Source of the DNA: a virus
Lineage: Duplodnaviria; Heunggongvirae; Uroviricota; Caudoviricetes
DNA: 51,123 bases
Strand: one strand, 5' to 3'
Virus record (IMG/VR): IMGVR_UViG_638341087_000015
Coordinates: 1-51,123 of that record
In this document: positions 3,045 to 26,981 of the stretch, in pieces
How positions within the stretch are numbered: the first letter of the stretch is position 1
Layout: each line of letters opens with the position of its first letter
Notes under the pieces: model-generated
Databases searched by the model: none
The model's input: only the letters and a program-made list of their open reading frames with translations
What the model was told of the DNA's origin: nothing
Translations under genes and position numbers: made by a program

Positions 3045-3055
3045 TGTGTCCTTCC

Positions 3056-6000: not shown

Positions 6001-6127
6001 ACTTAACGATCAGGTAGTCCAGAGTGGCACAGGTCGATTCAAAATCGTCGCTTGCCCACAGGACGACGTCAGGTTCACCGGATGATTTTTTCGCTTTCCG
6101 TAACAGGAAGAGTGGTTTTGTGCTCAT
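3056..6127 (-). CDS. recE: Exodeoxyribonuclease VIII-like protein (RecE-like), 1023 aa
   Basis: Large ORF upstream of the recT-position gene; C-terminal region carries a PD...D-x-K style motif (RPDIEI...ADVKS); central acidic region with a CNACG...CPDCG cysteine cluster. Confidence 0.65.
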
Positions 6128-9389: not shown

Positions 9390-9411
9390 AACATCAAGAG
9401 GCAAATGATTC

Positions 9412-9834
9412 ATGAAAATCAAGCATGAGCACATCGAATCAGTGTTGTTTGCCCTAGCAGCCGAAAAAGGGCAGGCATGGGTAGCCAATGCCATTACTGA
9501 AGAATATCTGCGCCAGGGGGGCGGCGAATTGCCCCTGGTTCCAGGCAAGGACTGGAACAATCAGCAGAATATCTATCACCGTTGGTTGAAAGGTGAAACG
9601 AATGCGCAAAGGGAAAAAATTCAGAAATTGATCCCTGCGGTTCTGGCAATTCTTCCTCGCGAGCTGCGTCACCGACTCTGCATCTTCGATACCCTGGAAC
9701 GCCGTGCATTACTGGCGGCGCAGGAAGCGTTAAGTACGGCAATTGATGCGCATGATGATGCAGTCCAGGCCGTTTACCGGAAAGCGCATTTCAGCGGCGG
9801 CGGGTCTTCCGACGATTCTGTCATTGTTCATTAA
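9412..9834 (+). CDS. ydaT: YdaT-like protein (140 aa)
   Basis: Immediately follows ydaS; 140 aa as in Rac ydaT. Confidence 0.65.
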   Translation: MKIKHEHIESVLFALAAEKGQAWVANAITEEYLRQGGGELPLVPGKDWNNQQNIYHRWLKGETNAQREKIQKLIPAVLAILPRELRHRLCIFDTLERRALLAAQEALSTAIDAHDDAVQAVYRKAHFSGGGSSDDSVIVH

Positions 9835-9846
9835 GCAAAAGTTTCC

Positions 9847-10704
9847 ATGCTGTTTGTGCTTATTCTAAGCAATCGGGCAGCATCATACGGGGCAATTATG
9901 GCCGCATTACCATACATGCAACTGTACATAGCTGATTACCTGGCTGACACCATGCATTTGTCAGCAGAGGAGCATGGTGCGTATTTGTTGCTGATGTTCA
10001 ATTACTGGCAAACAGGAAAGCCAATACCTAAAAACAGGCTGGCAAAAATTGCCCGTCTGACTAACGAGCGATGGGCTGATGTTGAACCGTCCTTGCGGGA
10101 GTTTTTTTGCGATAACGGCGAGGAATGGGTGCATCTTCGGATTGAGGAAGATCTGGCATCAGTCAGGGAAAAATTAACCAAAAAATCAGCCGCAGGAAAA
10201 GCATCGGTTCAGGCCAGAAGAAGCAGAAAGGAAGCAGATGTTCAAACAAAACAAGAGAGAAATTTAACAGGTGTTCAAACAGATGTTGAAGTGGTGTTTG
10301 AACATGATGTCAACACAAAGGCAACTAATAAAGATACAGATAAAGATCTAAAAACAGATCCCCCCCTAAATCCCCCCCGGGGGAATCGAGGTGTCAAAAA
10401 GTTTGACCCTCTGGATATTGCTTTGCCGAACTGGATTTCTGTCTCGCTCTGGCGTGAGTGGGTTGAATTTCGCCAGGCATTGCGTAAACCGATTCGAACG
10501 GAGCAGGGCGCTAACGGGGCGATACGGGAGCTGGAAAAATTCCGCCAGCAGGGTTTTTCACCTGAGCAGGTGATTCGACACAGCATCGCCAATGAATACC
10601 AGGGCTTGTTCGCGCCAAAAGGTGTTCGACCTGAGACGTTACTCCGACAGGTTAACACCGTCTCGTTACCGGATAGTGCGATCCCGCCAGGCTTCAGGGG
10701 GTAA
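9847..10704 (+). CDS. ydaU: Replication-associated protein YdaU-like (285 aa)
   Basis: Position upstream of the DnaC-like gene; 285 aa as in Rac ydaU. Confidence 0.65.
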   Translation: MLFVLILSNRAASYGAIMAALPYMQLYIADYLADTMHLSAEEHGAYLLLMFNYWQTGKPIPKNRLAKIARLTNERWADVEPSLREFFCDNGEEWVHLRIEEDLASVREKLTKKSAAGKASVQARRSRKEADVQTKQERNLTGVQTDVEVVFEHDVNTKATNKDTDKDLKTDPPLNPPRGNRGVKKFDPLDIALPNWISVSLWREWVEFRQALRKPIRTEQGANGAIRELEKFRQQGFSPEQVIRHSIANEYQGLFAPKGVRPETLLRQVNTVSLPDSAIPPGFRG

Positions 10705-10710
10705 CTGACC

Positions 10711-11457
10711 ATGAAAAATATTGCGGCAGGAGGCATTCTTGAACGTATCCGCAGACTGGCCCCGCCACATGTAACCGCCCCATTCAAAACGGTAGCGGAG
10801 TGGCGCGAGTGGCAACTTTCCGAAGGCCAGAAACGTTGTGAGGAGATCAACCGTCAGAATCGTCAGTTGCGGGTGGAAAAAATTCTGAATCGCTCTGGCA
10901 TCCAGCCATTGCACCGCAAATGCTCGTTTGCGAATTACCAGGTGCAGAACGACGGTCAGCGATACGCGTTGAACCAGGCGAAATCTATCGCTGATGAACT
11001 GATGACCGGGTGTACAAATTTTGCGTTCAGCGGAAAACCTGGTACCGGAAAAAACCATCTGGCGGCGGCTATCGGGAATCGCCTGCTGAAAGATGGCCAG
11101 ACAGTGATTGTGGTTACCGTGGCTGATGTCATGAGTGCTCTACACGCCAGCTATGACGACGGGCAATCAGGCGAAAAATTTTTGCGGGAACTGTGCCAAG
11201 TGGATCTGCTGGTTCTTGATGAAATTGGCATTCAGCGCGAGACAAAAAACGAGCAGGTGGTGCTGCACCAGATTGTTGATCGCCGGACAGCGTCGATGCG
11301 CAGCGTGGGGATGCTGACAAACCTGAACTATGAGGCCATGAAAACATTGCTCGGCGAGCGGATTATGGATCGCATGACCATGAACGGCGGGCGATGGGTG
11401 AATTTTAACTGGGAGAGCTGGCGTCCGAATGTCGTCCAGCCAGGAATTGCGAAGTGA
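10711..11457 (+). CDS. ydaV: DnaC/IstB-like replicative helicase loader (248 aa)
   Basis: Walker A motif [15 protein letters not shown] and Walker B LLVLDEIG; follows ydaU. Confidence 0.8.
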
Positions 11458-11479
11458 TTTTTACCGGGAGGAAATTTTA

Positions 11480-12241
11480 ATGGAAACCGTTTTTGATGCA
11501 CTGAAAGCAATGGGAAAAGCCACGTCGGTAGAACTGGCTGCGCGACTTGATATCAGTCGTGAAGAAGTGCTGAACGAGCTGTGGGAACTTAAAAAGGCTG
11601 GCTTCGTTGATAAAAGCGTATACACCTGGCGTGTGGCTGATAACAACGTTCAGCAGGAACAGCCAGAGCAGGCAGAACTGCCGGAAGAAACCACCACGGC
11701 AACAGTAGCGAAAATCTCAGAGTGCGATTTAACCGCGACGATTGAACAACGTGGCCCACAAACGGCGGATGAACTGGCTACGTTTTTCGGCACCACATCA
11801 CGCAAAGTGGCTTCAACGCTGGCAATGGCAATCAGCAAAGGCCGTCTGATTCGCGTTAATCAGAACGGTAAATTTCGTTACTGCATGCCGGGCGATGATT
11901 TACCAGCAGAGCCGAAAGCTGCATCGGTAACGGAAACTGATGGTAAAGCCTTTCCTCAACCAGCAGGTGTTGCGTTACCGGGACAGGAAGCTGCAACACA
12001 GGAAGATATTAAAACAGAAACTGTGGCGGACATTGTGCAGTCGTTGCCATCGTTTACCGAAACGCGAGCGGATGACCTCGTTCTGCCATCGCTGCATATG
12101 GCAAACCGCGAACTGCGTCGGGCGAAAAATCATGTCCAGAAGTGGGAGCGTGTCTGCGCCGCGCTGCGGGAGCTGAACAAGCACCGGGATATTGTTCGAC
12201 AGATTACTGATTCTTCTCGCTGTGTTGCATCGGAAAAGTGA
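11480..12241 (+). CDS. Hypothetical protein with tandem winged-helix-like segments (YdaW-like)
   Basis: ORF 11429.. trimmed to the ATG at 11480, preceded by GGGAGG. Confidence 0.45.
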
Positions 12242-12256
12242 TTGCCGGAGGCGCTT

Positions 12257-12661
12257 ATGGCAAAAGTATTTACACAAGAAGAGCGGGAAAAAATCAAGGG
12301 ACAGGTTGTTGAGCTAGTACGCCGGAGTGGGCGCGAGACGTTACGGCAACTGGAAGCCAAGACAGGTGCGACAAGATATCTGATGAGCGTTCTCGCCAGA
12401 GAGCTGGTTGCCAGTGGCGATGTATACAACTCTGGCTACGGGTTATTCCCGTCTGAACAGGTTCGTAAGGACTGGCAAAACGCCCGCAAAAAACTATCGA
12501 GGGCAAAGGCGAAGAAACCGGTTGTGGTTGATCCGGACCTTATCTGGTCATTACCAGACGGAGAAATACGCCGCTACGACAGGCGTCAGAACATGATTTG
12601 CCGTGAGTGCCGGGAAAGCAAAGGTATGCAGCGTATACTAACGTTCTATTGGGGAATATAG
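12257..12661 (+). CDS. Hypothetical protein
   Basis: Track ORF starts at TTG 12242; the ATG at 12257 has a GGAG RBS. Confidence 0.4.
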   Translation: MAKVFTQEEREKIKGQVVELVRRSGRETLRQLEAKTGATRYLMSVLARELVASGDVYNSGYGLFPSEQVRKDWQNARKKLSRAKAKKPVVVDPDLIWSLPDGEIRRYDRRQNMICRECRESKGMQRILTFYWGI

Positions 12662-13346: not shown

Positions 13347-13443
13347 TTAAATTTAGCACTGTTAAAAATTTAATCCTTAACCGGAGGGATTTCTGCACCC
13401 TCAGAACATCAGGAGGCCGCCTGAAAGGGCGGTGGAGATAATA

Positions 13444-13965
13444 ATGGGAATAACTAAAGAACGATTGTTGGAAATAGCAAACCTTAGTGATTGGGCATTA
13501 AGTGATGAGAGAATTATTTCTCCTCATGCTTATGAGTCAGTTACAAGTATAGAAATAACCACAATGGCTAGAATGCTGCTTGGTTATTTCAAAATAGAAA
13601 ATAAAAAACAGATGGATAGTAATGTTGATATATGTGAGATTTTAGACGATTGGGGGGCTTGGGTTGTGGCTGGTAATAGTTCTATTGATTGGCAGGAAAT
13701 AGCTGATAAATATAAAAATGTTGTTCCTCATGGTAAAAAATCACGTCGTCAGTGCAGCAATGATGAAGGGCGAGTTATTGACATTAGTATCCTTAGGTTA
13801 GAAAGATATAAGCAACAAGAATATGAGTTAATTGTTGCTCATTTTGTGATTGGTTTATCTCTTCGTGCTATTGCAAAGCAACAAGGATGTTCAGATGGAA
13901 CAATTCGTAAAAGATTGCAAAAAGCCTTAGGTTTTTTGACTGGATATATAGCAATTACCAGTTAA
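13444..13965 (+). CDS. Putative Q-family (QuuD-like) antiterminator/regulator with C-terminal HTH
   Basis: Segments WGAW, SRRQCSNDEG and CSDGTIRKRLQKAL resemble the conserved core of DLP12-type Q proteins as I recall them; AT-rich; GGAG RBS before the ATG at 13444. Confidence 0.45.
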   Translation: MGITKERLLEIANLSDWALSDERIISPHAYESVTSIEITTMARMLLGYFKIENKKQMDSNVDICEILDDWGAWVVAGNSSIDWQEIADKYKNVVPHGKKSRRQCSNDEGRVIDISILRLERYKQQEYELIVAHFVIGLSLRAIAKQQGCSDGTIRKRLQKALGFLTGYIAITS

Positions 13966-14603
13966 GAGTCAGCGGGTTTTTTACCAGTGTAATGGTATAA
14001 GGATACTCCCATGTGTCTTACATGATATGGAAGCGCTGTTGCTGGATGCTTTGTGATACTCTTAAAGCGGAGGGGAGAGCCTTCCGCTTCAATTTCTGCG
14101 TCCGAAACGGTCGTAGAGAAAAATTCTTTCCATTCATTGAATTTTACTGCTGATTTGTCAGACTTTATATAAATTAGAATTCCTCCATGATCGTCACGTG
14201 ACGTACCCGTGCCGTAACGTTCGGTTAGCTGAATCCAGCCATTATGAATAGATTTGGGGCCTCTCCATAATTTTGCTTCACCGATCCATTCGAATTTTCC
14301 GAATTGATGTTTAACTAATAAATCAACGTGACCGCCATGTTGAGTATCATGTTCAACATCATAAAACCTACCTTTCAGGAAATTTTTGATCGACGCTGTT
14401 AGCTCGTCCTCTCCCCACTTAGCATCTTGATAGAAGTGTTTGTCATTTTCTAAATTCTGAATAGCGTCGTCTAAATCTTCATAGAGTTGCTTTACAAAAA
14501 TATTTTTGTCTGCAGCTAATTTTCTTTGAACCATTCCCCTAAATTCAGGATCCATTCTAATTAATGATTGAAGGTCTGCAGTACAGATGTTTACATCACT
14601 CAT
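13962..14603 (-). CDS. Hypothetical protein with PD-(D/E)xK-like nuclease motif (cassette gene 3)
   Basis: Motif HVDLLV...EWIGEAK (D then E-x-K); ATG at 14603 with GGAGAG RBS, overlapping the upstream gene stop by 8 nt; 3-prime end overlaps the convergent Q-family gene by 4 nt. Confidence 0.5.
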   Translation of the reverse strand: MSDVNICTADLQSLIRMDPEFRGMVQRKLAADKNIFVKQLYEDLDDAIQNLENDKHFYQDAKWGEDELTASIKNFLKGRFYDVEHDTQHGGHVDLLVKHQFGKFEWIGEAKLWRGPKSIHNGWIQLTERYGTGTSRDDHGGILIYIKSDKSAVKFNEWKEFFSTTVSDAEIEAEGSPLRFKSITKHPATALPYHVRHMGVSLYHYTGKKPADS

Positions 14604-15024
14604 GCAGACTCTCCAAAAGACTCGAAGGAGTAAAGTATGGATAAAGATACTGGCTAAAATTATCAACCAATTCGCCAGTTTCTGGATGGTAAAAACTTCC
14701 TGTGTCTAAAGCATAGGAAATAAGATCATCTTCAACTGGTATTGGTTCTTCCGTTAAATTATCAATGTATTGAAAATGCATATCCAATAGATGTGCTTTA
14801 TAGCTAGATAAATAATCAGTTGCTTTTATTAGCAGGATATAGTCATCTTTCGTATCAGTTAGATAGGTCAAACCATTGATAAGGGTTTTGTATGTAAAGT
14901 GATTGATATTTTTAGCATCTTTACTAACCAGAAAAAGAAAAAGATCACGACACACACTGCGAACAGGATCATTAAAATCCTGCTCTATTTGCGTGATAAT
15001 GTCGTGATATATACTCTTTTTCAT
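14596..15024 (-). CDS. Hypothetical acidic protein (cassette gene 2)
   Basis: 142-aa ORF; its ATG overlaps the stop of cassette gene 1 as ATGA (translational coupling). Confidence 0.55.
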   Translation of the reverse strand: MKKSIYHDIITQIEQDFNDPVRSVCRDLFLFLVSKDAKNINHFTYKTLINGLTYLTDTKDDYILLIKATDYLSSYKAHLLDMHFQYIDNLTEEPIPVEDDLISYALDTGSFYHPETGELVDNFSQYLYPYFTPSSLLESLHE

Positions 15025-16112
15025 TTATGGCCTGATGATCTCGCTCTTCTTTTCTCTTCACAGGACTTAACAGAATCCAATATTTTTTCAACAATAAATA
15101 TAATCGAATCAATGTTGTTACAGTTCTTCGCAATTGCTTCATGCAACCTAATTCTAGGATTATCAAGCATTGTCCTTTTCCCTGGTAATATTAACTCTAC
15201 TGATAAAATATGTGAAGAACTTTGTGGTAAATCCCAAATTTTTCCCAACTTAAACTTTGTCAATATTGGGCTTGCGGACTCTCCACTATGATGGTAAACA
15301 TCTTGACGCAAACACTTTTGACTTGGTTTGAGTTTTAAAGAACTTGTATTGCCATCTGAGGTGATAAAAGATACATGAGAAATTCTGCCATCTACTTTCT
15401 CGTAAAGATCTTGTATTGAACCAAATAATTCAAGAGGATTGTTTAAAATAACGCCAGCTTCTTTTTTTATAAAATTAGCCACAAGGTATTGTTGAGGCTG
15501 TGATTCACTTCTTGGAAGGATAGATAAATCAATCGTAAGAATTAATATTTTTTCTGCAGGCATTAGCATGATGGTATTAAAGCATTGCGTGACTTGGCGT
15601 GTTTTGCATTTTATTTCTCCACCATTAGCACGTAATTCCATACCCGCATCGCTAAGATGTGTTGGGTCAAGCTCTATCACTTCAGTGTAATACGCTTTGG
15701 ATAAAAAAACAGCAGTGTCAATTTGTTTATCACGAATGATATCTTGACGTAGTTCAGCAAAATGCAGCTCAGTATCAGCAACTAACAGCTCCTCTCTGGA
15801 TAAAGGAGTTGGGTATTTTTCTGAGAAGAGGCTATTGTCCTTTTTCTGATTTGTGAAAATTGTTTGTAATTTTGCTACGTCTTCATCGGTGATTCTATAA
15901 ATAGAAAGTAATCGATTCCCGCTAAAAATTAAACCTTTCCAGAAATCGTCGATTCTGTCTTTTAGGTCGGGATTATGCTGAACTACACTATTTACACGTT
16001 CAATAAAAAGGGGTAATCCTTGGGCCGTTACACCCAGTGATGAACCAAGAAGCTTACGGGTGTTGCGCCAGCCAAAGCGTGAATTGATGTTTTTTACTGT
16101 TTGCTCAAGCAT
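15021..16112 (-). CDS. Hypothetical protein, about 363 aa (cassette gene 1)
   Basis: Track ORF 15021..16118 begins at GTG; the ATG at 16112 has AAGGAAG 5 nt upstream; AT-rich; no motif recognised. Confidence 0.55.
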   Translation of the reverse strand: MLEQTVKNINSRFGWRNTRKLLGSSLGVTAQGLPLFIERVNSVVQHNPDLKDRIDDFWKGLIFSGNRLLSIYRITDEDVAKLQTIFTNQKKDNSLFSEKYPTPLSREELLVADTELHFAELRQDIIRDKQIDTAVFLSKAYYTEVIELDPTHLSDAGMELRANGGEIKCKTRQVTQCFNTIMLMPAEKILILTIDLSILPRSESQPQQYLVANFIKKEAGVILNNPLELFGSIQDLYEKVDGRISHVSFITSDGNTSSLKLKPSQKCLRQDVYHHSGESASPILTKFKLGKIWDLPQSSSHILSVELILPGKRTMLDNPRIRLHEAIAKNCNNIDSIIFIVEKILDSVKSCEEKRRARSSGHK

Positions 16113-16457
16113 TAACACTTCCTTAATTTTCCCTTAACAATTTAGGGTGCTAAACTTTTTTGCGCAGTTTACACAAAAAAATAGTGCGTACGCAAAAACT
16201 ATCTAACATGATGAGCTTTAACCGGGAAATTTGTATATGTTGTGAGCATAAAGTTGGCTGAGAAATTTAAAACGGGTAGAATGACTGCGGGTGCTTGAGG
16301 CTATCTGCCTCGGGCATGAACACCAAAGGCAGATAGAGAAAAGCCCCAGTTAACATTACGCGTCCTGCAAGACGCTTAACATTAATCTGAGGCCAATTTC
16401 ATGCTTTGCACATGTAGGTTAGCCTCTTACGTGCCGAAAGGCAAGGAGAAGCAGGCT

Positions 16458-17679: not shown

Positions 17680-17969
17680 TGGTGGATTTACGTAAAGCGG
17701 CGCGGGGGCAGATGTGCACCGTCAGAATTCCTGGCTACTGCAATCACGATCCGGAAACGTCTGTGCTGGCGCATTACCGACTGGCGGGAACGTGCGGAAC
17801 AGCGACAAAACCACACGATATGCAGGCGGCGATTGCCTGTAGCTCATGCCACGATCTAATCGACGGGCGGGTAAAAACCATCGATTACACCAAAGAAGAA
17901 TTACGCCTGATGCATGCAGAAGGTGTTCTTCGCACACAAGAAATCTGGAGAAAGGAGGGATATTTATGA
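17679..17969 (+). CDS. Nin-region protein YbcO-like (96 aa, Cys-rich)
   Basis: 96 aa with CxxxxC/CSSCH motifs; start overlaps the previous stop (TAATG); stop overlaps the Q start (ATGA). Confidence 0.5.
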   Translation: MVDLRKAARGQMCTVRIPGYCNHDPETSVLAHYRLAGTCGTATKPHDMQAAIACSSCHDLIDGRVKTIDYTKEELRLMHAEGVLRTQEIWRKEGYL

Positions 17970-18508
17970 TTTACCCAACGAATACAGGAAAAAGCGGAGA
18001 ACACCTTCGTCTCACCACGCTGGAAAGTGTCTGGATTCAGGGAAAACTACGTATGTGGGGGCGCTGGTCGTATATTGGCGGCGGTAAGACGGGGAATATG
18101 TTCAACCAGTTGTTGGCCTCTAAAAAGCTGACAAAAACGGCAATTAACGAGGCGCTCCGGAGGATGAAAAAAGCAGGTCTGAACAAGTCTGAACTTGAGG
18201 CTTTTTTGCGGGATATGATTAACGGTAAGCAAAAGAGCTGGCTGGCGCATTGTACTGATGCAGAGGCGTTATGTATTGATCGGGTCATAAGTCAGGTGCT
18301 GGCAGAGCATCCAGGATTGATTAGCGTCCTTCGGCAACGGTATGAGGGGCGGGGGATGACCAAACGCAAAATGGCTGAATTGCTAAATGATGCACACCCA
18401 GAGTGGTGTTTTAGCACATGCGAAAAGCGAATTGCTAATTGGTTGGCCGTTGCTGAGTATGCGCTATACATTCCCATGCGAGAATCATTCTCTCAAAAAA
18501 CGGCTTGA
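17966..18508 (+). CDS. Putative late-gene antiterminator Q (180 aa)
   Basis: ATG at 17966 preceded by AAGGAGGG; last gene before the tRNAs and lysis cassette, the canonical Q position. Confidence 0.5.
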   Translation: MIYPTNTGKSGEHLRLTTLESVWIQGKLRMWGRWSYIGGGKTGNMFNQLLASKKLTKTAINEALRRMKKAGLNKSELEAFLRDMINGKQKSWLAHCTDAEALCIDRVISQVLAEHPGLISVLRQRYEGRGMTKRKMAELLNDAHPEWCFSTCEKRIANWLAVAEYALYIPMRESFSQKTA

Positions 18509-18594
18509 TTTTTTACGCATAAACTGCTTCAATTTTGCTACGCTTCGCAAAGCTGTATCGCGAGGCGAATCAAGCGCAATTAAACTTTAATAGA

Positions 18595-18620
18595 ACCCGC
18601 CATCGAGCGGGTTTTGTTGT
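18595..18620 (+). terminator. Intrinsic terminator-like hairpin downstream of Q
   Basis: acccgc-catcga-gcgggt stem-loop followed by a T-rich tract. Confidence 0.4.
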
Positions 18621-18861
18621 TTCTGTGGTGTGATATCAGAAACGACATTTAATCATCGCCTTCAAAATAAATTTATTTATATGTTGTTGTATATATTTTA
18701 AGTGAAAGTGAATTATTCACATAAAATAAAAACATATAAATAAATTTACATAACTTGACGCAAACTGTTGTTGCGATTGGAATATTAAATCGTATCATCG
18801 AAAACGGTTCTGAGGGGGAACTCTTCTTTGAACGGTGATATCGCTCCCCTGAAGAACCAAT

Positions 18862-18937
<76 letters not shown>

Positions 18938-18940
18938 TAT

Positions 18941-19015
<75 letters not shown>

Positions 19016-19381
19016 GCATTTGAAACAAGCCTTATTGTATTACGGCACTGGCGTATTTTTTTATTACGTGGGAGCAGGTTGTTTTGAAAAAGCATTCTGT
19101 TCTCTGGCTATGATTTGAGGCCGGGTGTAGCCTCAGTGCTGATTTTTTTACGGCAGCAGAATGGTGCATTATCGGTGGAGATTTTGTATTTCCTGGCAGG
19201 GTCGGTGATGCATCATTCTGGTGTTGTAAATCGCACCACAGAGGCGCTCCTCAGTGCGAGGGTGGTTTAAAGAGTCGGTTTAGCGGGAAACCACAGTATC
19301 CATACAGCACGGAATACTTCGGGAGGCACCCGACGCCTCGGTTTAATAACAATTAAAAAATTCATCCCTTGCATTGACCAA

Positions 19382-19406
19382 CCGCCATATCTGGCGGTTT
19401 TTTTTA
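19382..19406 (+). terminator. Rho-independent terminator
   Basis: ccgcca-tatc-tggcgg hairpin followed by a run of eight T. Confidence 0.6.
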
Positions 19407-19794
19407 TTCCTTTCTCAGGACAAAAAAAGACACGAGCATCCAGGAATACTCGTGGGACAACGTCCTTTAGATAGCAATTTGCGAGAGGGTGAAAAGTAGC
19501 GCGGTCGTCGGATTAAGACCGCGGGACAAAGTCCATGAAGAATAATAAGTATTGGCCCCCTTCTGGGGACATGTTCATACTACTAAGCTTCAGAAGTGGT
19601 TTAAATCATCAAATTAACCTTAATTTACGATAAGTCTTATTTCATTTCTTTGCGCCACATCTGGCGCGCATCAAATAACGCCACGCAAAGGGCATCTGCG
19701 GATGCCGGTGCTTTTGACGGGGTGTTTTTTACGGGCCGCTGGTGGCCATTTTTTGTTTCCATTACACAGCGCCCGCATCTGCGAGGTGGGGGTT

Positions 19795-20010
19795 ATGAAA
19801 TCCATGGATAAGTTAACAACGGGTGTCGCCTATGGCACCTCCGCAGGCAGTGCTGGCTACTGGTTTTTACAGTTGCTCGATAGAGTAACTCCGTCACAGT
19901 GGGCTGCAATCGGTGTGCTGGGTAGTCTGGTTTTTGGCCTGCTGACGTACCTGACAAACCTTTATTTCAAGATTAAAGAAGATAAGCGCAAGGCTGCGAG
20001 AGGTGAATAA
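19795..20010 (+). CDS. Class II holin, phage-21 S-like pinholin (71 aa)
   Basis: MKSMDK...[13 protein letters not shown]...[13 protein letters not shown] matches my recollection of S21; tracked ORF start 19702 lies in hairpin-rich non-coding sequence. Confidence 0.8.
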
Positions 20011-20507
20011 TGCCTCCATCATTACGAAAAGCCGTTGCTGCTGCTATTGGTGGCGGAGCAATTGCTATAGCATCAGTGTTAATCACTGGCCCAAGTGGTA
20101 ACGATGGTCTGGAAGGTGTCAGCTACATACCATACAAAGATATTGTTGGTGTATGGACTGTATGTCACGGGCATACAGGAAAAGACATCATGCTCGGTAA
20201 AACGTATACCAAAGCAGAATGCAAAGCACTCTTGAATAAAGACCTTGCCACTGTCGCCAGACAAATTAACCCGTACATCAAAGTCGATATACCGGAAACA
20301 ACGCGCGGCGCTCTTTACTCATTCGTTTACAACGTGGGTGCTGGCAATTTCAGAACATCGACGCTTCTTCGCAAAATAAACCAGGGCGATATCAAAGGCG
20401 CATGTGATCAGCTACGTCGCTGGACATATGCTGGCGGTAAGCAATGGAAAGGTCTCATGACTCGTCGTGAGATTGAGCGTGAAATCTGTTTGTGGGGTCA
20501 GCAATGA
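20010..20507 (+). CDS. SAR endolysin (lysozyme, phage-21 R-like)
   Basis: N-terminal Gly/Ala-rich signal-anchor-release segment then lysozyme core; start overlaps the holin stop (TAATG). Confidence 0.8.
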
Positions 20508-20968
20508 ACAGAGTAACCGCGATTATCTCCGCTCTGGTTATCTGCATCATCGTCTGCCTGTCATGGGCTGTTAATCATTACCGTGATAACGCCATTACCT
20601 ACAAAGCCCAGCGCGACAAAAATGCCAGAGAACTGAAGCTGGCGAACGCGGCAATTACTGACATGCAGATGCGTCAGCGTGATGTTGCTGCGCTCGATGC
20701 AAAATACACGAAGGAGTTAGCTGATGCGAAAGCTGAAAATGATGCTCTGCGTGATGATGTTGCCGCTGGTCGTCGTCGGTTGCACATCAAAGCAGTCTGT
20801 CAGTCAGTGCGTGAAGCCACCACCGCCTCCGGCGTGGATAATGCAGCCTCCCCCCGACTGGCAGACACCGCTGAACGGGATTATTTCACCCTCCGGGAAC
20901 GACTGGTAATGATGCAGGCCCAACTTGAAGGTGCTCAGCAATACATAACCGAACAGTGTTTAAAGTAA
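20504..20968 (+). CDS. Spanin inner-membrane subunit Rz
   Basis: N-terminal TM segment and coiled-coil; ATG at 20504 overlaps the endolysin stop (ATGA). Confidence 0.75.
20724..20909 (+). CDS. Spanin outer-membrane lipoprotein Rz1 (embedded in Rz, +1 frame)
   Basis: Lipobox LVVVGC, proline-rich PPPPP segment, AAGGAG RBS at 20711..20716; entirely inside Rz. Confidence 0.75.
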
Positions 20969-21105: not shown

Positions 21106-22563
21106 ATGAATACATCTCATGTAAGAGTTGTTACTCATATGTGTGGGTTCCTGGTTTGGCTCTATAGTCTTTCAATGTTGCCACCAATGGTTGTAGCATT
21201 GTTTTATAAAGAAAAAAGCCTGTTCGTTTTCTTTATAACTTTCGTTATATTTTTTTGCATTGGTGGCGGAGCGTGGTATACAACTAAGAAATCTGGCATT
21301 CAATTACGTACCCGTGATGGGTTTATTATAATTGTAATGTTTTGGATTTTGTTTTCTGTTATTAGTGCATTCCCTTTATGGATTGACTCAGAACTTAATT
21401 TAACGTTCATTGATGCTCTGTTTGAAGGGGTTTCTGGAATAACAACAACAGGAGCAACTGTAATTGATGATGTTAGTTCATTACCTCGGGCATATTTGTA
21501 CTATCGGTCACAGTTAAATTTTATAGGTGGTTTAGGAGTTATTGTTCTGGCGGTTGCTGTATTGCCATTATTGGGTATTGGTGGTGCAAAGCTTTATCAG
21601 TCAGAAATGCCGGGGCCATTTAAGGATGACAAACTCACTCCCCGCCTGGCCGATACGTCACGGACACTGTGGATAACTTATTCTTTATTAGGTATTGCTT
21701 GTATTGTCTGTTATAGACTTGCAGGAATGCCTTTGTTTGATGCTATTTGTCACGGGATTTCCACAGTTTCGCTTGGTGGTTTCTCAACTCATAGCGAGAG
21801 TATCGGATATTTTAATAACTATTTGGTTGAGCTGGTTGCTGGTTCTTTTTCCCTGCTATCGGCTTTCAACTTCACTCTTTGGTATATTGTTATTAGCAGG
21901 AAAACGATAAAACCTTTAATCAGAGATATTGAACTTCGTTTCTTTCTGTTAATAGCCTTAGGGGTGATCATTGTTACCTCTTTCCAGGTCTGGCATATAG
22001 GTATGTATGACTTGCATGGAAGTTTTATTCATTCGTTTTTTCTTGCCAGCTCCATGCTCACTGATAATGGTTTAGCTACGCAGGATTATGCAAACTGGCC
22101 CACGCACACGATAGTGTTTTTGCTGTTGTCAAGTTTCTTTGGGGGATGTATAGGTTCAACTTGTGGTGGAATTAAGTCACTTCGATTTCTTATACTTTTC
22201 AAACAAAGCAAACACGAGATAAATCAGCTTTCTCATCCCAGAGCGTTGTTGAGTGTAAATGTAGGAGGGAAGATAGTTACAGATCGTGTAATGAGGTCTG
22301 TATGGAGTTTCTTTTTTCTTTATACTCTCTTCACGGTGTTTTTTATACTGGTGTTAAATGGTATGGGATATGATTTTCTTACATCATTTGCAACAGTGGC
22401 TGCATGTATTAATAATATGGGATTAGGTTTTGGGGCTACTGCATCGTCATTCGGAGTGCTTAATGACATTGCAAAATATTTAATGTGCATAGCTATGATT
22501 CTTGGTCGCCTTGAAATTTATCCTGTTATTATATTGTTTTCAGGTTTTTTTTGGCGCTCCTAA
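21106..22563 (+). CDS. trkG: Trk-family potassium uptake membrane protein TrkG-like (485 aa)
   Basis: Polytopic membrane protein with repeated pore-loop glycine motifs (TTTGATV, GLGV, LGGFS, CGGIKS); AT-rich; Rac is known to carry trkG. Confidence 0.8.
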   Translation: MNTSHVRVVTHMCGFLVWLYSLSMLPPMVVALFYKEKSLFVFFITFVIFFCIGGGAWYTTKKSGIQLRTRDGFIIIVMFWILFSVISAFPLWIDSELNLTFIDALFEGVSGITTTGATVIDDVSSLPRAYLYYRSQLNFIGGLGVIVLAVAVLPLLGIGGAKLYQSEMPGPFKDDKLTPRLADTSRTLWITYSLLGIACIVCYRLAGMPLFDAICHGISTVSLGGFSTHSESIGYFNNYLVELVAGSFSLLSAFNFTLWYIVISRKTIKPLIRDIELRFFLLIALGVIIVTSFQVWHIGMYDLHGSFIHSFFLASSMLTDNGLATQDYANWPTHTIVFLLLSSFFGGCIGSTCGGIKSLRFLILFKQSKHEINQLSHPRALLSVNVGGKIVTDRVMRSVWSFFFLYTLFTVFFILVLNGMGYDFLTSFATVAACINNMGLGFGATASSFGVLNDIAKYLMCIAMILGRLEIYPVIILFSGFFWRS

Positions 22564-22700
22564 TATATGGCTGATTTATAATTGTGAGTTTAATATTATA
22601 TTGACTCACTCATTGATCCAATACCTAACTTTACCAGCAACACCTCCGCCCCCAGTAGCACTGGCTGCTGGGGTGCGTTTTATTCATAAAGCAAGGCTGT

Positions 22701-23489
22701 ATGAGCGAGAAATTAAAGATAGTCTATCGCCCATTACAAGAATTGTCACCGTATGCGCACAACGCCAGGACGCACAGTACTGAGCAGGTGGCACAACTGG
22801 TAGAAAGTATTAAGCAATTCGGCTGGACTAATCCGGTGCTGATTGACGAAAAGGGCGAAATTATTGCGGGTCACGGTCGTGTTATGGCGGCTGAAATGCT
22901 CAAAATGGATTCTGTTCCGGTCATTGTTCTGTCTGGCCTGACGGATGAGCAGAAAAAGGCGTACCGCCTGGCAGATAATCGCCTACCGATGAATGCTGGC
23001 TGGGATGAAGATCTGTTGCGGATGGAGCTGTCGGACCTAATCAATGCTGATTTTGATGTCTCCCTGACAGGCTTCGGCCCGACAGAAATTGATGAACTGT
23101 TGACGGATGTTTTGCCCGGTACAGGAAATAAGGAGGAGCCGTATACGACGAAAATTGATACGCCTGTTTATGAGCCGTCGGGCGGTAAACCGGATATCAG
23201 TGAACTGTACGACGATACGAAAACTCAGGAGCTGATCAGCCGGATACGTTCGGCGTCCCTTGATCCTGATATTGAGAAATTCCTCCTGTGTGCGGCAGAA
23301 CGTCACACGGTGTTTAATTTCAGCAGAATTGCGGACTATTACGCTCATGCCCCCGCTGAAATTCAGTGCCTTTTCGAGGAGTCGGCGCTGGTGATCATTG
23401 ATTATCAGCAGGCTATTGAAAATGGATTTGTCCGAATGACGCAGCGCATGGTGGCGATCATGCATAGCGGGGAGGAGGAATATGCGTGA
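22701..23489 (+). CDS. ParB-like nuclease domain protein
   Basis: N-terminal ParB/Srx-like motif NPVLIDEKGEIIAGHGRVMAA. Confidence 0.65.
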   Translation: MSEKLKIVYRPLQELSPYAHNARTHSTEQVAQLVESIKQFGWTNPVLIDEKGEIIAGHGRVMAAEMLKMDSVPVIVLSGLTDEQKKAYRLADNRLPMNAGWDEDLLRMELSDLINADFDVSLTGFGPTEIDELLTDVLPGTGNKEEPYTTKIDTPVYEPSGGKPDISELYDDTKTQELISRIRSASLDPDIEKFLLCAAERHTVFNFSRIADYYAHAPAEIQCLFEESALVIIDYQQAIENGFVRMTQRMVAIMHSGEEEYA

Positions 23490-24414
23490 TGATTTTTGCG
23501 CCTTTATTCTGACTCACGGGCGACCGGACAAAGTTCTGACTTACCGGACGTTGCGTCGTGCTGGCTATACCGGGAAAATTTTTATCGTTGTTGATGATGA
23601 AGATAAGACACGGCATCAGTACATGGCTGAATTTGGTGAACAGGTGCTGGTATTTTCCAAAGCCGATATTGCCAGTCGTTTTGACGAAGCCGATAATTTT
23701 GGTGACCGCCGCTCAATTTTTTACGCCCGTAATGCCTGTTTCGACCTGGCAAAACTGGTCGGGTGTAAATACTTCATTCAGCTCGATGATGATTATCACG
23801 AGTTCCAGTTTCGGGTGGATCGCAACTATGACCAGGCCTATTTCCCGATAAGGAAACTGGATGCGATCCTTTCTGAAATGCTGGCGTATTACGAATCAAT
23901 ACCCGCGCTTTCCATCGCTATGTCGCAGGGCGGGGATTTTCTTGGTGACAATGGCGGCCATGCTTCGTGGGTGAAACGCAAGGCAATGAACAGCTTTATC
24001 TGTTCGGTTGATCGACCGTTCTCATTCATGGGGCGCATTAACGAGGATGTGAATACGTACACGAATCTCGGTCGCTGTGGTGAATTGTTTATGACGATCG
24101 GTGCTGTCCAGTTAGGGCAGAAACAGACGCAGAAAAACAGCGGCGGAATGACCGAGCTGTATCTGGATTCCGGAACCTACGTTAAAAGTTTTTACTCCGT
24201 CATGTATGCGCCGTCGTGCGTAAAAATCTCACTGATGGGTGCCAGCCATAAACGCATTCACCATCAGGTCACCTGGAACAACGCTGCAGTAAAAATCCTT
24301 CACGAAAAATACAGGAAGAAGACACCCTGCATATCAATGGGGGTGACAAATGATTCCGTATTCGAAAGTCGAGTCTCTGGCAGCGTGCCGGATGACTGCA
24401 CAACAAATCGCTGA
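23482..24414 (+). CDS. Hypothetical protein with DxD motif (possible GT-A-like transferase fold)
   Basis: IFIVVDDEDK strand and FIQLDDDYHEF DxD motif; start overlaps the ParB-like stop; preceded by GGAGGAGG. Confidence 0.45.
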   Translation: MRDDFCAFILTHGRPDKVLTYRTLRRAGYTGKIFIVVDDEDKTRHQYMAEFGEQVLVFSKADIASRFDEADNFGDRRSIFYARNACFDLAKLVGCKYFIQLDDDYHEFQFRVDRNYDQAYFPIRKLDAILSEMLAYYESIPALSIAMSQGGDFLGDNGGHASWVKRKAMNSFICSVDRPFSFMGRINEDVNTYTNLGRCGELFMTIGAVQLGQKQTQKNSGGMTELYLDSGTYVKSFYSVMYAPSCVKISLMGASHKRIHHQVTWNNAAVKILHEKYRKKTPCISMGVTNDSVFESRVSGSVPDDCTTNR

Positions 24415-24601
24415 CGTTCTGGATGTTGATCTGAACCGACTGAAAGAAAATCGGGAAGCAATGACAGATTTTTATGCGGCCATCCGTAAGGGCAGAGCGA
24501 AAGGTGAAGCCGAGTTACGAGCGGCATTGTTTAAGCTTGCCAGAAAAGGGGATGCCTTTGCTCTGCGCGAACTACTCAGGGTGGATAAAAATCAGGACTA
24601 A
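24350..24601 (+). CDS. Small HTH-like protein upstream of terminase
   Basis: 83-aa ORF with GGGGG upstream; overlaps the previous gene by 65 nt, so the start is uncertain. Confidence 0.35.
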   Translation: MIPYSKVESLAACRMTAQQIADVLDVDLNRLKENREAMTDFYAAIRKGRAKGEAELRAALFKLARKGDAFALRELLRVDKNQD

Positions 24602-24604
24602 CTG

Positions 24605-25699
24605 ATGAGCAGACCGGACTGGGGGGCGTTGCAGCAGGAGTATATTGCTGAATACACCCGCTCCGGTATATCTCCGGTGGCATGGTGTGAAGCAAGGGGA
24701 CTGAACTACGCAACAGCCCGTCGTTACATCAAAAAAACTCCGAAAAATGCGCAGAAAGAAATGCGCAAAACTGCGCAAAAAAGTGCGCGAAAAAAAACTG
24801 CGCAGACTGCGCAAAGGCAGAACGGAAAATCTCAGAAAAAAAAGGCTGTATCCGATGCACTCCTGATTGAGGGGGACACGGAAGAAATTTCGTTCTGCCC
24901 CGATGAATTCGGTATTTCTGACCAGCAGGCAAAATTCGCCATGTTGGTTGCTCAGGGGAAAAAGCCGACAGAGGCATACCGACTGGCTGGTTATGAGGGG
25001 CAAGGTGCGACAGCTAACAGCAACGCCAGCCGTATGCTTAGAAATGCCAGGGTTTATCGTGCTATCAGCTACTTCCGCAATCAGTACCAGAAACGCTATA
25101 CCGCAGACCTGGATTTACTGGTGAGCCAGTTGATGGCCATTGTCCAGGCCGACCCCAATCAGTTGGCACAATTTCGCCGTGTTAACTGCCGTTATTGCTG
25201 GGGCGAGAATCATCTCTACCAGTGGCGTGATATTGCAGAATTCGATAAGGCTGCGGCACAGGCCTCCAGAGATGGTAAACCCGAGCCGGAATATGGAGGC
25301 CTCGGCTTTGTTGATAACGCCATACCCAATCCGGATTGCCCGAAGTGCTGCGGTGAGGGAACGGGACAGCTTTATATGGCTGATACCACACTGCTTGATG
25401 GGGATGCGCGGCAATTATATGCAGGGTCAAAGCTCGGAAAATACGGTGTTGAGATCCTGCTGGAGGATAAGGCTGCCGCCCGGCGTGAATTGTTGCGTTT
25501 GCTTTCTGCTGGCGGGGCATTATGTGCAGATAAGCAGCTACAGGAACTGGAAATTGAACGGCGCAGAATAGAAAACCAGAAGCTGCGCAAAGAGATCGAA
25601 ACGGTGGAGGATAATGAACATCCCCAGCCTGTGGCGATCAATATTAATGTGGTTGATGCCAGATTAAGGAGTGATGAAGATGATCTCTCCGACGCTTAA
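24605..25699 (+). CDS. Terminase small subunit
   Basis: Central AYRLAGY...NASRMLRNARV segment typical of small terminase subunits, plus C-terminal CxxC...CPKCC zinc-ribbon; precedes the large subunit. Confidence 0.65.
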   Translation: MSRPDWGALQQEYIAEYTRSGISPVAWCEARGLNYATARRYIKKTPKNAQKEMRKTAQKSARKKTAQTAQRQNGKSQKKKAVSDALLIEGDTEEISFCPDEFGISDQQAKFAMLVAQGKKPTEAYRLAGYEGQGATANSNASRMLRNARVYRAISYFRNQYQKRYTADLDLLVSQLMAIVQADPNQLAQFRRVNCRYCWGENHLYQWRDIAEFDKAAAQASRDGKPEPEYGGLGFVDNAIPNPDCPKCCGEGTGQLYMADTTLLDGDARQLYAGSKLGKYGVEILLEDKAAARRELLRLLSAGGALCADKQLQELEIERRRIENQKLRKEIETVEDNEHPQPVAININVVDARLRSDEDDLSDA

Positions 25700-26981
25700 T
25701 GTGCCTCAGGCGCGATTTCTTTCAATGCCCCATAAATTTAAAGCCTATATTGCTGGTTTTGGCTCGGGCAAAACATGGGTTGGGTGTGGCGGCATATGCA
25801 AGGGGATTTGGGAGCATCCAGGTATAAATCAGGGATATTTTGCGCCAACGTATCCCCAAATTCGCGATATTTTTTACCCTACAGTGGAAGAAGTTGCTGC
25901 TGACTGGGGATTGAACGTAAAAATTAATGAGGGAAATAAAGAGGTTCACTTTTATTACGGACGCCAGTATCGGGGAACCACTATCTGCAGATCGATGGAG
26001 AAGCCACAAACGATCGTCGGTTTCAAAATTGGTAATGCGCTGGTGGATGAACTGGACATTTTGCCGAAGGAAAAAGCCAGAACGGCGTGGCGCAAGATAA
26101 TTGCGCGTATGCGTTATAAGATTGATGGACTTCGCAACGGTATTGACGTTACAACCACGCCGGAAGGATTCAAATTTGTCTACGAGCAGTTTGTTAAAGC
26201 CGTGCGTGAAAAAACAGAGCTGGCCTCACTGTATGGTCTGGTGCAGGCATCTACTTTCGATAATGAAAAGAACCTGCCAGCAGATTACATTCCTTCACTT
26301 CTTGAATCATACCCTCCAGAGCTGATTAAAGCCTATCTTCTAGGACGGTTTACTAACCTGACAAGTGGTACTGTTTACCATCAGTTTGACCGGAAACTGA
26401 ATAATTGCGAAGAAGTGGAGCAGCCAGGGGAGCCGATTTATATTGGGATGGATTTTAACGTTGGAAAGATGGCGGGAATCGTCCATGTGCTGCGTTTGGG
26501 GCTTCCATGTGCGGTAACTGAAATCATCAATGCCTACGATACGCCGGATATGATCCGCCTCATTAAAGAACGCTTCTGGCTGTATGACGGGCATGATTAC
26601 CGGAAAGTGAGGGAGATTTATATTTATCCAGATGCTTCCGGAGATTCCAGAAAATCAAGTAACGCAAGTACGACGGATATAGCCCAGCTTAAGCAGGCAG
26701 GTTTTAACGTTGTGGTGAACAGCTCGAACCCGCCAGTAAAAGATCGCGTTAACTCAATGAATGCAATGTTCTGCAATGCCAATGGTGAGCGTCGCTATAA
26801 AGTTAATGTGAAGCGTTGTCCGGTATATGCCGAATCTCTGGAGCAACAGGTCTGGGATGATAAGGGGGAGCCTGATAAAAAATCTGGCAATGATCACCCG
26901 AATGATGCCGGAGGTTATTTCATCGTTAAGCAATTCCCTATTGTCAAACCGACCGGAAGAGTCACATCACTTCGGATTTAA
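25680..26981 (+). CDS. Terminase large subunit
   Basis: Walker A AGFGSGKT and C-terminal nuclease-like region; the ATG at 25680 has AAGGAG 8 nt upstream. Confidence 0.8.
   Translation: MISPTLNVPQARFLSMPHKFKAYIAGFGSGKTWVGCGGICKGIWEHPGINQGYFAPTYPQIRDIFYPTVEEVAADWGLNVKINEGNKEVHFYYGRQYRGTTICRSMEKPQTIVGFKIGNALVDELDILPKEKARTAWRKIIARMRYKIDGLRNGIDVTTTPEGFKFVYEQFVKAVREKTELASLYGLVQASTFDNEKNLPADYIPSLLESYPPELIKAYLLGRFTNLTSGTVYHQFDRKLNNCEEVEQPGEPIYIGMDFNVGKMAGIVHVLRLGLPCAVTEIINAYDTPDMIRLIKERFWLYDGHDYRKVREIYIYPDASGDSRKSSNASTTDIAQLKQAGFNVVVNSSNPPVKDRVNSMNAMFCNANGERRYKVNVKRCPVYAESLEQQVWDDKGEPDKKSGNDHPNDAGGYFIVKQFPIVKPTGRVTSLRI

Follow-up and report, generated by a model that had tools for sequence, protein, structure and literature searches.

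A ParB-Like Protein Strictly Linked to a TAGT-Family Glycosyltransferase Upstream of the Terminase Genes in Rac-Like Prophages and Other Viruses

The 51,123-nucleotide sequence IMGVR_UViG_638341087_000015 (Caudoviricetes), referred to below as the window, is a complete Rac-like lambdoid prophage of Escherichia coli. Directly upstream of its terminase genes, it carries two overlapping genes: one encodes a ParB-like protein of 262 amino acids (aa), here called the partner, and the other a glycosyltransferase of 310 aa. The two genes constitute one module, with a linkage that is strict in both directions across the viruses and prophages of many phyla. What is tied to the transferase, however, is not the ParB domain after which the first protein is named but a short linker peptide and a helical C-terminal domain. 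The pair is read here, with slightly less than an even chance of being right, as a late-expressed, adaptor-dependent DNA glycosyltransferase that resembles the ParB-dependent thymine dioxygenases.

Linkage of the Two Genes

The two open reading frames (ORFs) overlap start to stop, as the original prediction had described from the letters alone. The 8 nt in common are ATGCGTGA, an overlap that indicates translational coupling of partner and transferase, and a strong Shine–Dalgarno sequence, GGGGAGGAGGA (23469-23479), precedes the transferase start. In E. coli-type viral contigs, the ORFs of the two genes are intact in 74/74 and 71/74 cases. All 80 loci kept in that viral-contig scan are near-identical E. 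coli prophages; they are therefore of no use for assessing diversity and served only for these counts. Compared with the orthologues in Serratia, Superficieibacter and Pantoea, the nonsynonymous divergence (dN) is 0.14–0.18 for the transferase and about 0.3 for the partner; since synonymous sites are saturated, dN alone is reported and not dN/dS. Both genes are real and under purifying selection, and they are not a chance pair of ORFs.

A species-level scan, with one genome per species, gave 80 loci with transferases 40–100% identical to the query. Their hosts are Proteobacteria, Bacteroidota, Firmicutes, Verrucomicrobiota, Acidobacteriota, Ignavibacteria and candidate-phyla bacteria, together with metagenome-assembled genomes (MAGs) labelled as archaeal. 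In 78 of the 80 loci, the transferase gene is immediately preceded by a homologue of the partner gene in the same orientation; the remaining two loci are truncated by the end of their contig. Partner stop and transferase start overlap in 64 of the 72 loci where this could be measured, mostly at −8, −11 or −14 nt, and in three of the exceptions, a second transferase paralogue sits between the two genes.

The same linkage holds when viewed from the side of the partner. Among 50,697 phage records, 28 carry the C-terminal domain of the partner. The same 28, and no others, have an intact transferase of at least 39% identity, always adjacent to the domain. These 28 include the halovirus HHTV-2 and Lactobacillus phage phi jlb1. 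More distant members of the transferase family lack the partner domain, as in T4-like Aeromonas phages (23–25% identity) and Porphyromonas phages (27%), while phages T2 and T6 were not retrieved at E ≤ 1e-3 in this search. Between phyla and domains, the transferase itself keeps 40–57% identity, the comparison running from E. coli to Firmicutes, Bacteroidota and the halovirus.

Natural fusions of partner and transferase were also sought. The longer homologues proved to be deletion chimeras with portal, terminase or tail genes, and one representative with an apparent C-terminal domain plus transferase (P0241) was a 161-aa E. coli fragment, leaving no genuine fusion.

The Linker Peptide and C-Terminal Domain

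The partner is best conserved not in its ParB domain but in the stretch made up of linker peptide and C-terminal domain. Compared with the E. coli proteins, median identity is 47% over this stretch and 40% in the ParB domain, and the transferase reaches 50%. The linker peptide (Table 1) occurs in 111 of 150 family representatives, where its Y, T/S, K, P, Y and P positions are essentially invariant. Y148, P155 and Y157 are unchanged in an alignment that covers bacteria and an archaeal virus. In the model of the partner, the motif falls in a stretch predicted to be unstructured. It is proposed here to be a docking element for the transferase or, alternatively, its acceptor.

The C-terminal domain corresponds to no Pfam family. 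An exhaustive phmmer search with it yielded 1189 clusters at 50% identity, and among the best 150 matches, the domain is almost always at the C-terminus of the protein. Most of these proteins have a detectable ParB N domain, but several are only 128–160 aa long and consist of the peptide and C-terminal domain alone; such short partners retain the linker motif. In Vibrio phage pv27 (191 kb), for example, the gene upstream of the transferase (5459-5878 of locus L162) encodes 139 aa made up of these two elements only. The ParB domain is thus dispensable within the module, and the linkage runs through the C-terminal domain and linker peptide, which goes beyond the original prediction. The pv27 pair is located among replication genes (primase, exonuclease and helicase) and does not adjoin the terminase.

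In nine other loci (L092, L104, L114, L122, L124, L125, L136, L159 and L160), the partner has an N-terminal region of 130–220 aa that is missed by the Pfam ParB_N model. These loci are mostly from Bacteroidales/Bacteroides, with Kiritimatiellae, Lentisphaera and Clostridia MAGs making up the rest. The region represents a strongly diverged ParB domain or else another kind of module.

The ParB/Srx N Domain

The ParB/Srx-like motif that had been noticed at the N-terminus of the partner is confirmed by Pfam ParB_N (residues 23-90, E = 8.8e-7, 29.3 bits against a cut-off of 26.3) and by PHROG 620, “ParB-like partition protein” (E = 3e-90). In an alignment that reaches from E. coli to phi jlb1 and HHTV-2, the nucleotide-binding positions of ParB are kept: N21-A-R23 in Box I (as N21-x-R23), G57-H-G-R60 in Box II and N93 in Box III. 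The canonical Glu of the GERR box is a His in the partner, which makes NTP hydrolysis uncertain. Sequence gives no prediction of nucleotide specificity for the ParB-CTPase fold (PMC12704722).

Judged by sequence similarity, the closest relatives of this domain are the N-terminal domains of phage DNA methyltransferases. It matches the N-terminus of PADLOC MTase_II over residues 10-141 (E = 1e-38), the only PADLOC match of the partner, and PHROG 498, “DNA methyltransferase”, with E = 3.7e-51. A tblastn search with the domain retrieved 428 phage records, many of them annotated as DNA modification or adenine methylases, in which the ParB domain is fused to the methylase; identity to many of the phage methylases is 30–56%. 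These fusions are often found at the genome end adjoining the terminase; in Streptococcus phage Javan486, the fusion directly precedes the terminase genes, the same slot that is occupied by the pair.

A role in partitioning is not supported. The partition-protein model TIGR00180 reaches only 38.1 bits against a cut-off of 58.45, with a match limited to residues 11-94. Pfam detects no helix-turn-helix (HTH) domain in the partner, no ParA-type ATPase was found among the scanned ORFs of the window, and 22500-25800 contains neither palindromes nor repeats that resemble parS sites. Members of the partner family are acidic throughout, with a median isoelectric point (pI) of 4.44.

The Transferase

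The original prediction had suggested a GT-A-type nucleotide-sugar transferase fold for the 310-aa protein, from a hydrophobic strand that ends in acidic residues (IFIVVDDEDK) and a DxD motif (QLDDDY). Profile searches confirm it. The protein matches Pfam PF20691 (TET-associated glycosyltransferase, TAGT) with 121.6 bits (cut-off 27.5; E = 5.5e-35), residues 8-222 aligning to positions 4-205 of the 205 in the profile, and PHROG 842 with E = 9e-104. By its sequence, it is a glycosyltransferase of the TAGT family with the GT-A (nucleotide-diphospho-sugar transferase) fold and its DxD motif, and it is read as a metal-dependent enzyme that uses a nucleotide sugar. No PDB chain matched it at E ≤ 1 in a sequence search of solved structures, and it has no PADLOC match.

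A 29-sequence family alignment identified invariant columns at R14, D38, D41, E69-x-D71-N72-F73, Y81-A-R-N84, D102-D103-D104-Y105 and N187-E188-D189, and further at Q149-x-G151-D152 (G150 nearly so), T216-Q217, G221-G222-M223-T224 and R258-x-H260-H261. In the AF2 model, residues 32-38 and 97-102 are strands, the acidic residues of IFIVVDDEDK coming after the first and the DxD motif after the second. By analogy with other GT-A enzymes, IFIVVDDEDK is assigned to the nucleotide-binding Asp position and QLDDDY to the site that binds the metal and the diphosphate. R14, D102-104 and E188-D189 fit the R...DDD...ED[Y/F] active-site signature that is common to phage DNA GT-A enzymes and the trypanosome base-J glucosyltransferase JGT (bioRxiv 10.1101/2023.12.21.572611).

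The transferase family is basic, with a median pI of 8.36, and so is the highly conserved C-terminal region (Table 1). This region is poorly placed in isolation, the predicted local distance difference test (pLDDT) score being below 50 over residues 217-273, and it is a candidate for the surface to which partner or acceptor binds. Beyond the conserved core, which extends to about residue 285 (nt ~24336), the last ~25 residues (24337-24414) form a tail of the E. coli lineage that is absent in other genera.

Comparison with Known Systems

The TAGT family includes the T2/T6 DNA glucosyltransferase, its first member known from experiment, which adds a second glucose to glucosyl-5-hydroxymethylcytosine (glucosyl-5hmC). 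In a 2026 survey, 288 of 753 glycosyltransferase-bearing phage genomes had “solitary” TAGTs, whose function was left open (PMC13216743). The T2/T6 enzyme, a beta-glucosyl-HMC-alpha-glucosyltransferase, shares with the one described here the Pfam family, the GT-A fold, the DxD motif and its phage origin, and it modifies post-replicative DNA (PMC13216743). However, its acceptor, alpha-glucosyl-5hmC, is made through a dCMP hydroxymethylase and an alpha-glucosyltransferase (alpha-GT), neither of which was found in this prophage, and the T-even-type homologues are the distant ones without the partner domain. These differences indicate that the name carried by PHROG 842 and RefSeq has been over-propagated for this subfamily. 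It has spread to genes of Lactobacillus, Vibrio, Porphyromonas and haloarchaeal viruses (NC_024206.1, NC_021340.1, NC_019449.1 and others). No gene of the hydroxymethylcytosine pathway is annotated in the regions flanking the transferases of phi jlb1 and HHTV-2, so the product name is probably wrong there. The association with TET/JBP (5mYOX) dioxygenases that gave the TAGT family its name is not seen here either.

A parallel for the pairing comes from O’Toole et al. (PNAS 2026), in whose study one subclass of the thymine dioxygenases of phages is active on double-stranded DNA only with a cognate ParB-like protein (PMC13229309). These ParB176-type proteins consist of a nucleotide-binding domain, a linker and a C-terminal domain without an HTH and are often encoded near terminase genes (PMC13229309). 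As in 5mYOX176/ParB176, an enzyme of a DNA-modifying family is encoded next to an HTH-less ParB-like protein of this architecture. The present pair has a glycosyltransferase instead, with no dioxygenase among the scanned ORFs of the prophage, whereas ParB-dependent dioxygenases go with kinases and amino-acid transferases, glycosyltransferases being associated with the ParB-independent class (PMC13229309).

ParB-CTPase-fold domains fused to DNA N6/N4 methyltransferases in prophages were described by Kaljevic et al. (PNAS 2025; PMC12704722). Such fusions (PHROG 498, PADLOC MTase_II) have a homologous N domain and occupy the same slot upstream of the terminase, but they transfer methyl rather than glycosyl groups and carry the enzyme on the same polypeptide, whereas here it is a separate protein that would be tied to the N domain through the linker peptide and C-terminal domain.

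Pyle et al. described phage GT-A enzymes that glycosylate 5hmC made by a methyltransferase and a dioxygenase (bioRxiv 10.1101/2023.12.21.572611 / Cell Rep 2024). About 65% of their glycosyltransferase contigs lacked 5mYOX or ThyS, and ParB-like and terminase genes were frequent neighbours (bioRxiv 10.1101/2023.12.21.572611). The 5mYOX/ThyS-associated enzymes and JGT share the GT-A fold and the active-site signature with the transferase; the former act on 5hmC, for which no precursor enzyme was found here, and no obligate partner domain was described for them.

The 310-aa protein is named “GREB1-related protein” by NCBI, and its glycosyltransferase domain family is also that of GREB1, a large cytoplasmic eukaryotic protein that O-GlcNAcylates the oestrogen receptor (PMC7968844). 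GREB1 has neither a ParB-type partner nor a viral context. T4 alpha-GT, which is reported in the literature to co-purify with the gp45 clamp, is a DNA glycosyltransferase associated with an accessory protein that encircles DNA. Its fold is GT-B, however, gp45 serves as the clamp in replication, and the level of modification does not strictly require the interaction.

Iyer et al. are said to have defined the TAGT family in 2013 and, according to a later paper, to have proposed that ParB directs modification enzymes. The transferase family and its association with ParB have already been noted computationally. No paper was found on the C-terminal domain of the partner, on its obligate link to a TAGT or on experiments with ynaK, the E. 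coli partner gene, or with the transferase. Three features appear not to have been described before: a partner domain that is obligate, a ParB domain that can be dispensed with and a precursor enzyme that is consistently missing.

Possible Function of the Pair

If the pair is an adaptor-dependent DNA glycosyltransferase, the first gene would encode an obligate adaptor for the enzyme encoded by the second, both being expressed with the late genes. The linker peptide and C-terminal helical domain would bind the basic enzyme and probably also dimerise and activate it. Where present, the ParB/Srx N domain would tether or gate the enzyme on duplex DNA in a nucleotide-gated fashion, a role comparable by analogy to that of ParB176 for the thymine dioxygenase or of gp45 for T4 alpha-GT. 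Replicated phage DNA would then be glycosylated just before it is packaged by the adjacent terminase, and this would protect it from nucleases in the next host.

The original prediction had favoured DNA modification or anti-restriction over partitioning, and in its direction, this is the best-supported reading, with DNA as the presumed acceptor. It draws support from a TAGT family that includes the T2/T6 DNA glucosyltransferase (PMC13216743) and from a ParB domain of the kind that is fused to phage DNA methyltransferases, which also counts as a link to DNA. Further links of this kind are the methylase fusion in the pre-terminase slot of Javan486, the HTH-less activators of thymine dioxygenases and the association of T4 alpha-GT with gp45, and the fit to the active-site signature of DNA-acting GT-A enzymes speaks for the identity of the enzyme. 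Partitioning, by contrast, is left unsupported by the missing ParA and HTH, the sub-threshold TIGR00180 match and the lack of parS-like repeats. The basic transferase (C-terminal region pI 9.7) and its acidic partner are counted in favour of the adaptor model. The conservation of the transferase across phyla and domains argues for a universal acceptor, which could be DNA or the partner’s own peptide.

Several points weigh against a DNA acceptor. The scanned ORFs of the prophage, at least 180 aa long, include no TET/JBP dioxygenase, thymidylate-synthase-like hydroxymethylase, DNA methyltransferase, dCMP hydroxymethylase, alpha-GT or beta-GT. Precursor enzymes of the first three kinds were not found within 10 kb on each side of the pair in five other Pfam-annotated contexts, nor are they recurrent among 279 neighbouring proteins, of which the 25 commonest families are listed and singletons are possible. 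With no enzyme that makes 5hmC or 5-hydroxymethyluracil (5hmU), the acceptor would have to be a group native to ordinary DNA, such as an exocyclic amine, and we know of no glycosyltransferase that uses an acceptor on canonical DNA, nor of any such modification. The partner is strongly acidic, with no domain recognisable as DNA-binding, the models are of low confidence for the C-terminus of the transferase and the C-terminal domain of the partner, and the invariant hydroxyl residues of the linker (Y, T/S and Y) would suit an acceptor as well. A literature search turned up nothing on DNA with sugar modifications in Rac-like phages of E. coli. GREB1 glycosylates protein and not DNA (PMC7968844).

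A more specific version of the DNA reading, in which the pair adds sugar directly to ordinary, non-hydroxymethylated DNA at the exocyclic amine of A, C or G or at another native group, with a ParB-type, NTP-gated adaptor carrying the enzyme along the duplex, is considered rather doubtful.

The strongest rival takes the linker hydroxyls as the acceptor. The transferase would O-glycosylate its own partner on Tyr, Thr or Ser, in the manner of glycogenin, and the product would be the glycosylated acidic ParB-like protein itself, which might, for instance, mimic DNA, serve as a decoy or be packaged to counter host defences. The partner is the only protein conserved beside the transferase across all lineages examined, and the hydroxyl positions of its motif, in their predicted unstructured stretch, are near-invariant (Y at position 0 in 111/111, T/S at +1 in 109/111 and Y at +9 in 111/111). 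Partners reduced to the C-terminal domain still carry the motif. With a pI of ~4.4, moreover, the partner equals known DNA mimics in acidity. The TAGT-domain protein GREB1 modifies a protein. On the other hand, an invariant short peptide is equally expected of an element that docks on a conserved enzyme surface, the characterised viral members of the family use DNA-linked acceptors, and a mere substrate has no evident need for an N domain common to DNA methyltransferases and dioxygenase activators. Nothing points to a function for such a glycoprotein, and we regard this explanation as unlikely.

Somewhat more unlikely is that the acceptor is another protein, either of the virion or packaging machinery, as with the capsids of mycobacteriophages and chloroviruses, or a universal host protein, and that the partner serves as a regulator or chaperone. 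This would fit the position of the pair at the head of the structural and packaging operon and the precedent of GREB1. One metagenomic phage with the pair (L167) also has four consecutive GT2-type genes after its capsid gene (17837-20316), which may be a separate virion-glycosylation cassette. The terminases that follow the pair, however, come from unrelated families (Terminase_6N, Terminase_3, GpA and TerL_ATPase with Terminase_4, along with several small-subunit families); the adjacent portals and capsids are similarly unrelated, which makes a co-evolving virion acceptor unlikely for a transferase that stays 40–57% identical from E. coli to Firmicutes, Bacteroidota and the halovirus. The strict coupling to a ParB-type protein would also be left unexplained.

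It is quite improbable that the transferase is a classical TAGT that needs 5hmC, 5hmU or an already glucosylated base, which would come from an enzyme encoded at another site or from a hydroxylase that has escaped recognition. Family membership and the PHROG name point in this direction, and some 5mYOX-like enzymes are known to escape the Pfam model (PMC13229309). Five Clostridia/Eubacteriales loci have a radical-SAM gene encoding 311–329 aa between the transferase and the terminase (Table 1), conceivably an oxygen-independent hydroxylase. The product could be an oxygen-independent step of the same pathway, although NCBIfam gives only generic sub-threshold matches, so that no subfamily or function can be assigned. 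Against this stand the whole prophage in the window with no precursor enzyme among its scanned ORFs, the lack of a recurrent TET_JBP gene in the neighbour censuses and the five 20-kb contexts, and the distance of the T-even-type TAGTs, which are without the partner domain. Furthermore, E. coli to our knowledge makes no hydroxymethyl bases.

Finally, the idea that the genes are functionally unrelated, a partition protein or packaging-assisting nuclease next to an independent moron glycosyltransferase, agrees with records that annotate the first gene as a “chromosome (plasmid) partitioning protein” and with accessory nucleases being common next to terminases, but it is already disfavoured, to the point of being barely tenable, by the two-way adjacency and overlap across phyla and domains, by the failure of every test for partitioning described above and by a ParB domain that can be missing while the C-terminal domain stays.

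Neighbouring Genes

The genes upstream of the pair are heterogeneous across loci; its conserved position is the one ahead of the terminase genes. In some loci, neighbouring genes suggest nucleotide-sugar chemistry or the diversification of a glycan. The gene right after the transferase in a Pseudobdellovibrionaceae locus (L133) encodes a UDP-galactopyranose mutase (3340-4530; 303.3 bits against an equivalog cut-off of 303.75), which hints at galactofuranose as the donor sugar there. Epimerase, dehydratase, nucleotidyltransferase and cytidylyltransferase genes are occasional neighbours. A tandem second transferase lies between the partner and the main transferase in L128 (5148-6008), L131 (3518-5272), L135 (4791-5600) and L145 (638-1486), which suggests stepwise building of a glycan; in L131, its C-terminal region has a weak methyltransferase-like match (E = 6e-6). 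Sugar-diversifying neighbours are the pattern expected of a modification under arms-race selection.

The Prophage and Its Distribution

The gene order of the prophage, taken from Pfam scans of its ORFs, is given in Table 1. The pair stands directly upstream of the terminase, as had been noted, with an 83-aa ORF in between. This ORF overlaps the 3′ end of the transferase gene by 65 nt, matches the middle of a terminase small subunit (PHROG 309, E = 8e-23) and is conserved only among Enterobacterales relatives; it is thus flanking context and not part of the module. Inside terS, imperfect direct repeats rich in TGCGCAAA (24749-24815 and 25561-25591) encode KKTAQK-like repeats and could be a pac-type recognition region.

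On the other side, trkG is inserted between the lysis cassette and the pair and brings its own strong terminator-like hairpin (22650-22673); it looks like a moron within the late operon. The hairpin has a 10-bp stem with 7 G-C pairs, followed by TGCGTTTTAT, and late transcripts antiterminated by Q would presumably read through it. The prophage has two separate genes with a Phage_antitermQ domain, the second of which also matches DUF1133. Between them, on the minus strand (13962-16118), are three ORFs of 234, 142 and 365 aa with no significant Pfam or PADLOC match (best E = 0.002), a candidate uncharacterised cargo or defence cassette. The G+C content there drops to ~36% (14001-16000), compared with 43–51% in most of the prophage. 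The type III effector genes at the right end indicate that the host is a strain like enterohaemorrhagic or enteropathogenic E. coli.

The pair was matched in 1580 of 5426 complete E. coli genomes, with a query coverage of at least 80% in 889 of them, which amounts to about one sequenced E. coli genome in six. The partner gene is the intact form of K-12 ynaK, and the transferase gene has been lost from K-12. Only the first 231–254 nt of ynaK are left in K-12 and BL21, which have no transferase, making them clean expression hosts. RefSeq names the partner “ynaK: ParB/Srx family N-terminal domain-containing protein” and the transferase “GREB1-related protein” or “hypothetical protein”.

Table 1. 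Features of the gene pair and of the prophage that carries it (window coordinates), with radical-SAM genes of five other loci (coordinates of those loci).
Feature	Position	Strand	Basis or remarks
Partner gene, 262 aa	22701-23489	+	ATG start; ParB/Srx N domain, linker peptide, C-terminal domain
ParB/Srx-type NTP-binding N domain, residues 1-140	22701-23120	+	No HTH
Linker peptide Y148-T-T-K-I-D-T-P-V-Y-E-P159	23142-23177	+	Family consensus Y-[TS]-x-K-[IV]-x-x-P-[IV]-Y-E-P
C-terminal helical domain, ~residues 170-255	23209-23465	+	Strictly linked to this transferase subfamily
Start/stop overlap, 8 nt	23482-23489	+	ATGCGTGA
Transferase gene, 310 aa	23482-24414	+	ATG start; TAGT family, GT-A
IFIVVDDEDK, residues 33-42	23578-23607	+	Strand beta-2 and acidic residues; D38, D41 invariant
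QLDDDY, residues 100-105	23779-23796	+	DxD motif after strand beta-4; D102-D104, Y105 invariant
N187-E188-D189-V190	24040-24051	+	Invariant columns (N187-E188-D189)
Conserved basic C-terminal region, residues 215-285	24124-24336	+	pI 9.7
Integrase	1-1236	-	Pfam
RecT and RecE (exonuclease VIII)	1992-6127	-	Pfam
SieB	7277-7888		Pfam
YdaS, YdaT, then DUF1376, IstB-like ATPase, DUF1627 and DUF977 proteins	9093-12661		Pfam; from its position, we take this block to be the ydaU, ydaV, ydaW region of K-12 Rac
Q-like antiterminators (two)	13432-13965 and 17846-18508		Pfam
Putative lysis cassette (holin, endolysin, Rz/Rz1)	19702-20968		ORF order and translations, not Pfam
TrkH-family potassium transporter (trkG), 491 aa	21088-22563		Pfam; TTG start
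Intrinsic-terminator-like hairpin and T-run	22650-22683	+	End of trkG insert, 28 nt before partner start codon
ParB-like partner and transferase pair	22701-24414	+
83-aa ORF between pair and terS	24350-24601	+	Resembles part of terminase small subunit
Terminase small and large subunits	24605-26981	+	Pfam
terS	24605-25699	+	Pfam, Terminase_2
terL	25671-26981	+	Pfam, Terminase_6N/6C
Portal, head and lambda-like tail genes	26984 onward		Pfam
Lom	44406-45005		Pfam
Tail fibre	45064-46383		Pfam
Type III effectors	46864-51123		Pfam
NleG	46864-47454
SopA/NleL-like HECT-type ligase with pentapeptide repeats	47505-49877
NleC	50131-51123		Peptidase_M85
Radical-SAM gene, L127	6860-7819
Radical-SAM gene, L128	6830-7819
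Radical-SAM gene, L129	2695-3630
Radical-SAM gene, L141	2095-3084
Radical-SAM gene, L148	6866-7825

Implications

Two questions have recently been left open: the role of the solitary TAGTs of phages (PMC13216743) and the extent to which DNA-modifying enzymes have ParB-like partners (PMC13229309). One large TAGT subfamily is never solitary but always comes with a dedicated adaptor, and no enzyme that makes a hydroxymethyl base was found with the pair in the prophage or in the relatives examined. The present gene names, “beta-glucosyl-HMC-alpha-glucosyltransferase” and “chromosome partitioning protein”, are misleading.

If DNA is the acceptor, very common E. coli prophages and archaeal viruses would carry a new DNA modification, which would matter for the evasion of restriction, for phage therapy and for artefacts in sequencing. 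Should a group of ordinary DNA be the acceptor, temperate phages across many bacterial phyla and haloarchaea would be making a kind of DNA modification not known so far. If the acceptor is instead the peptide of the partner, the pair would represent a new kind of viral glycoprotein system.

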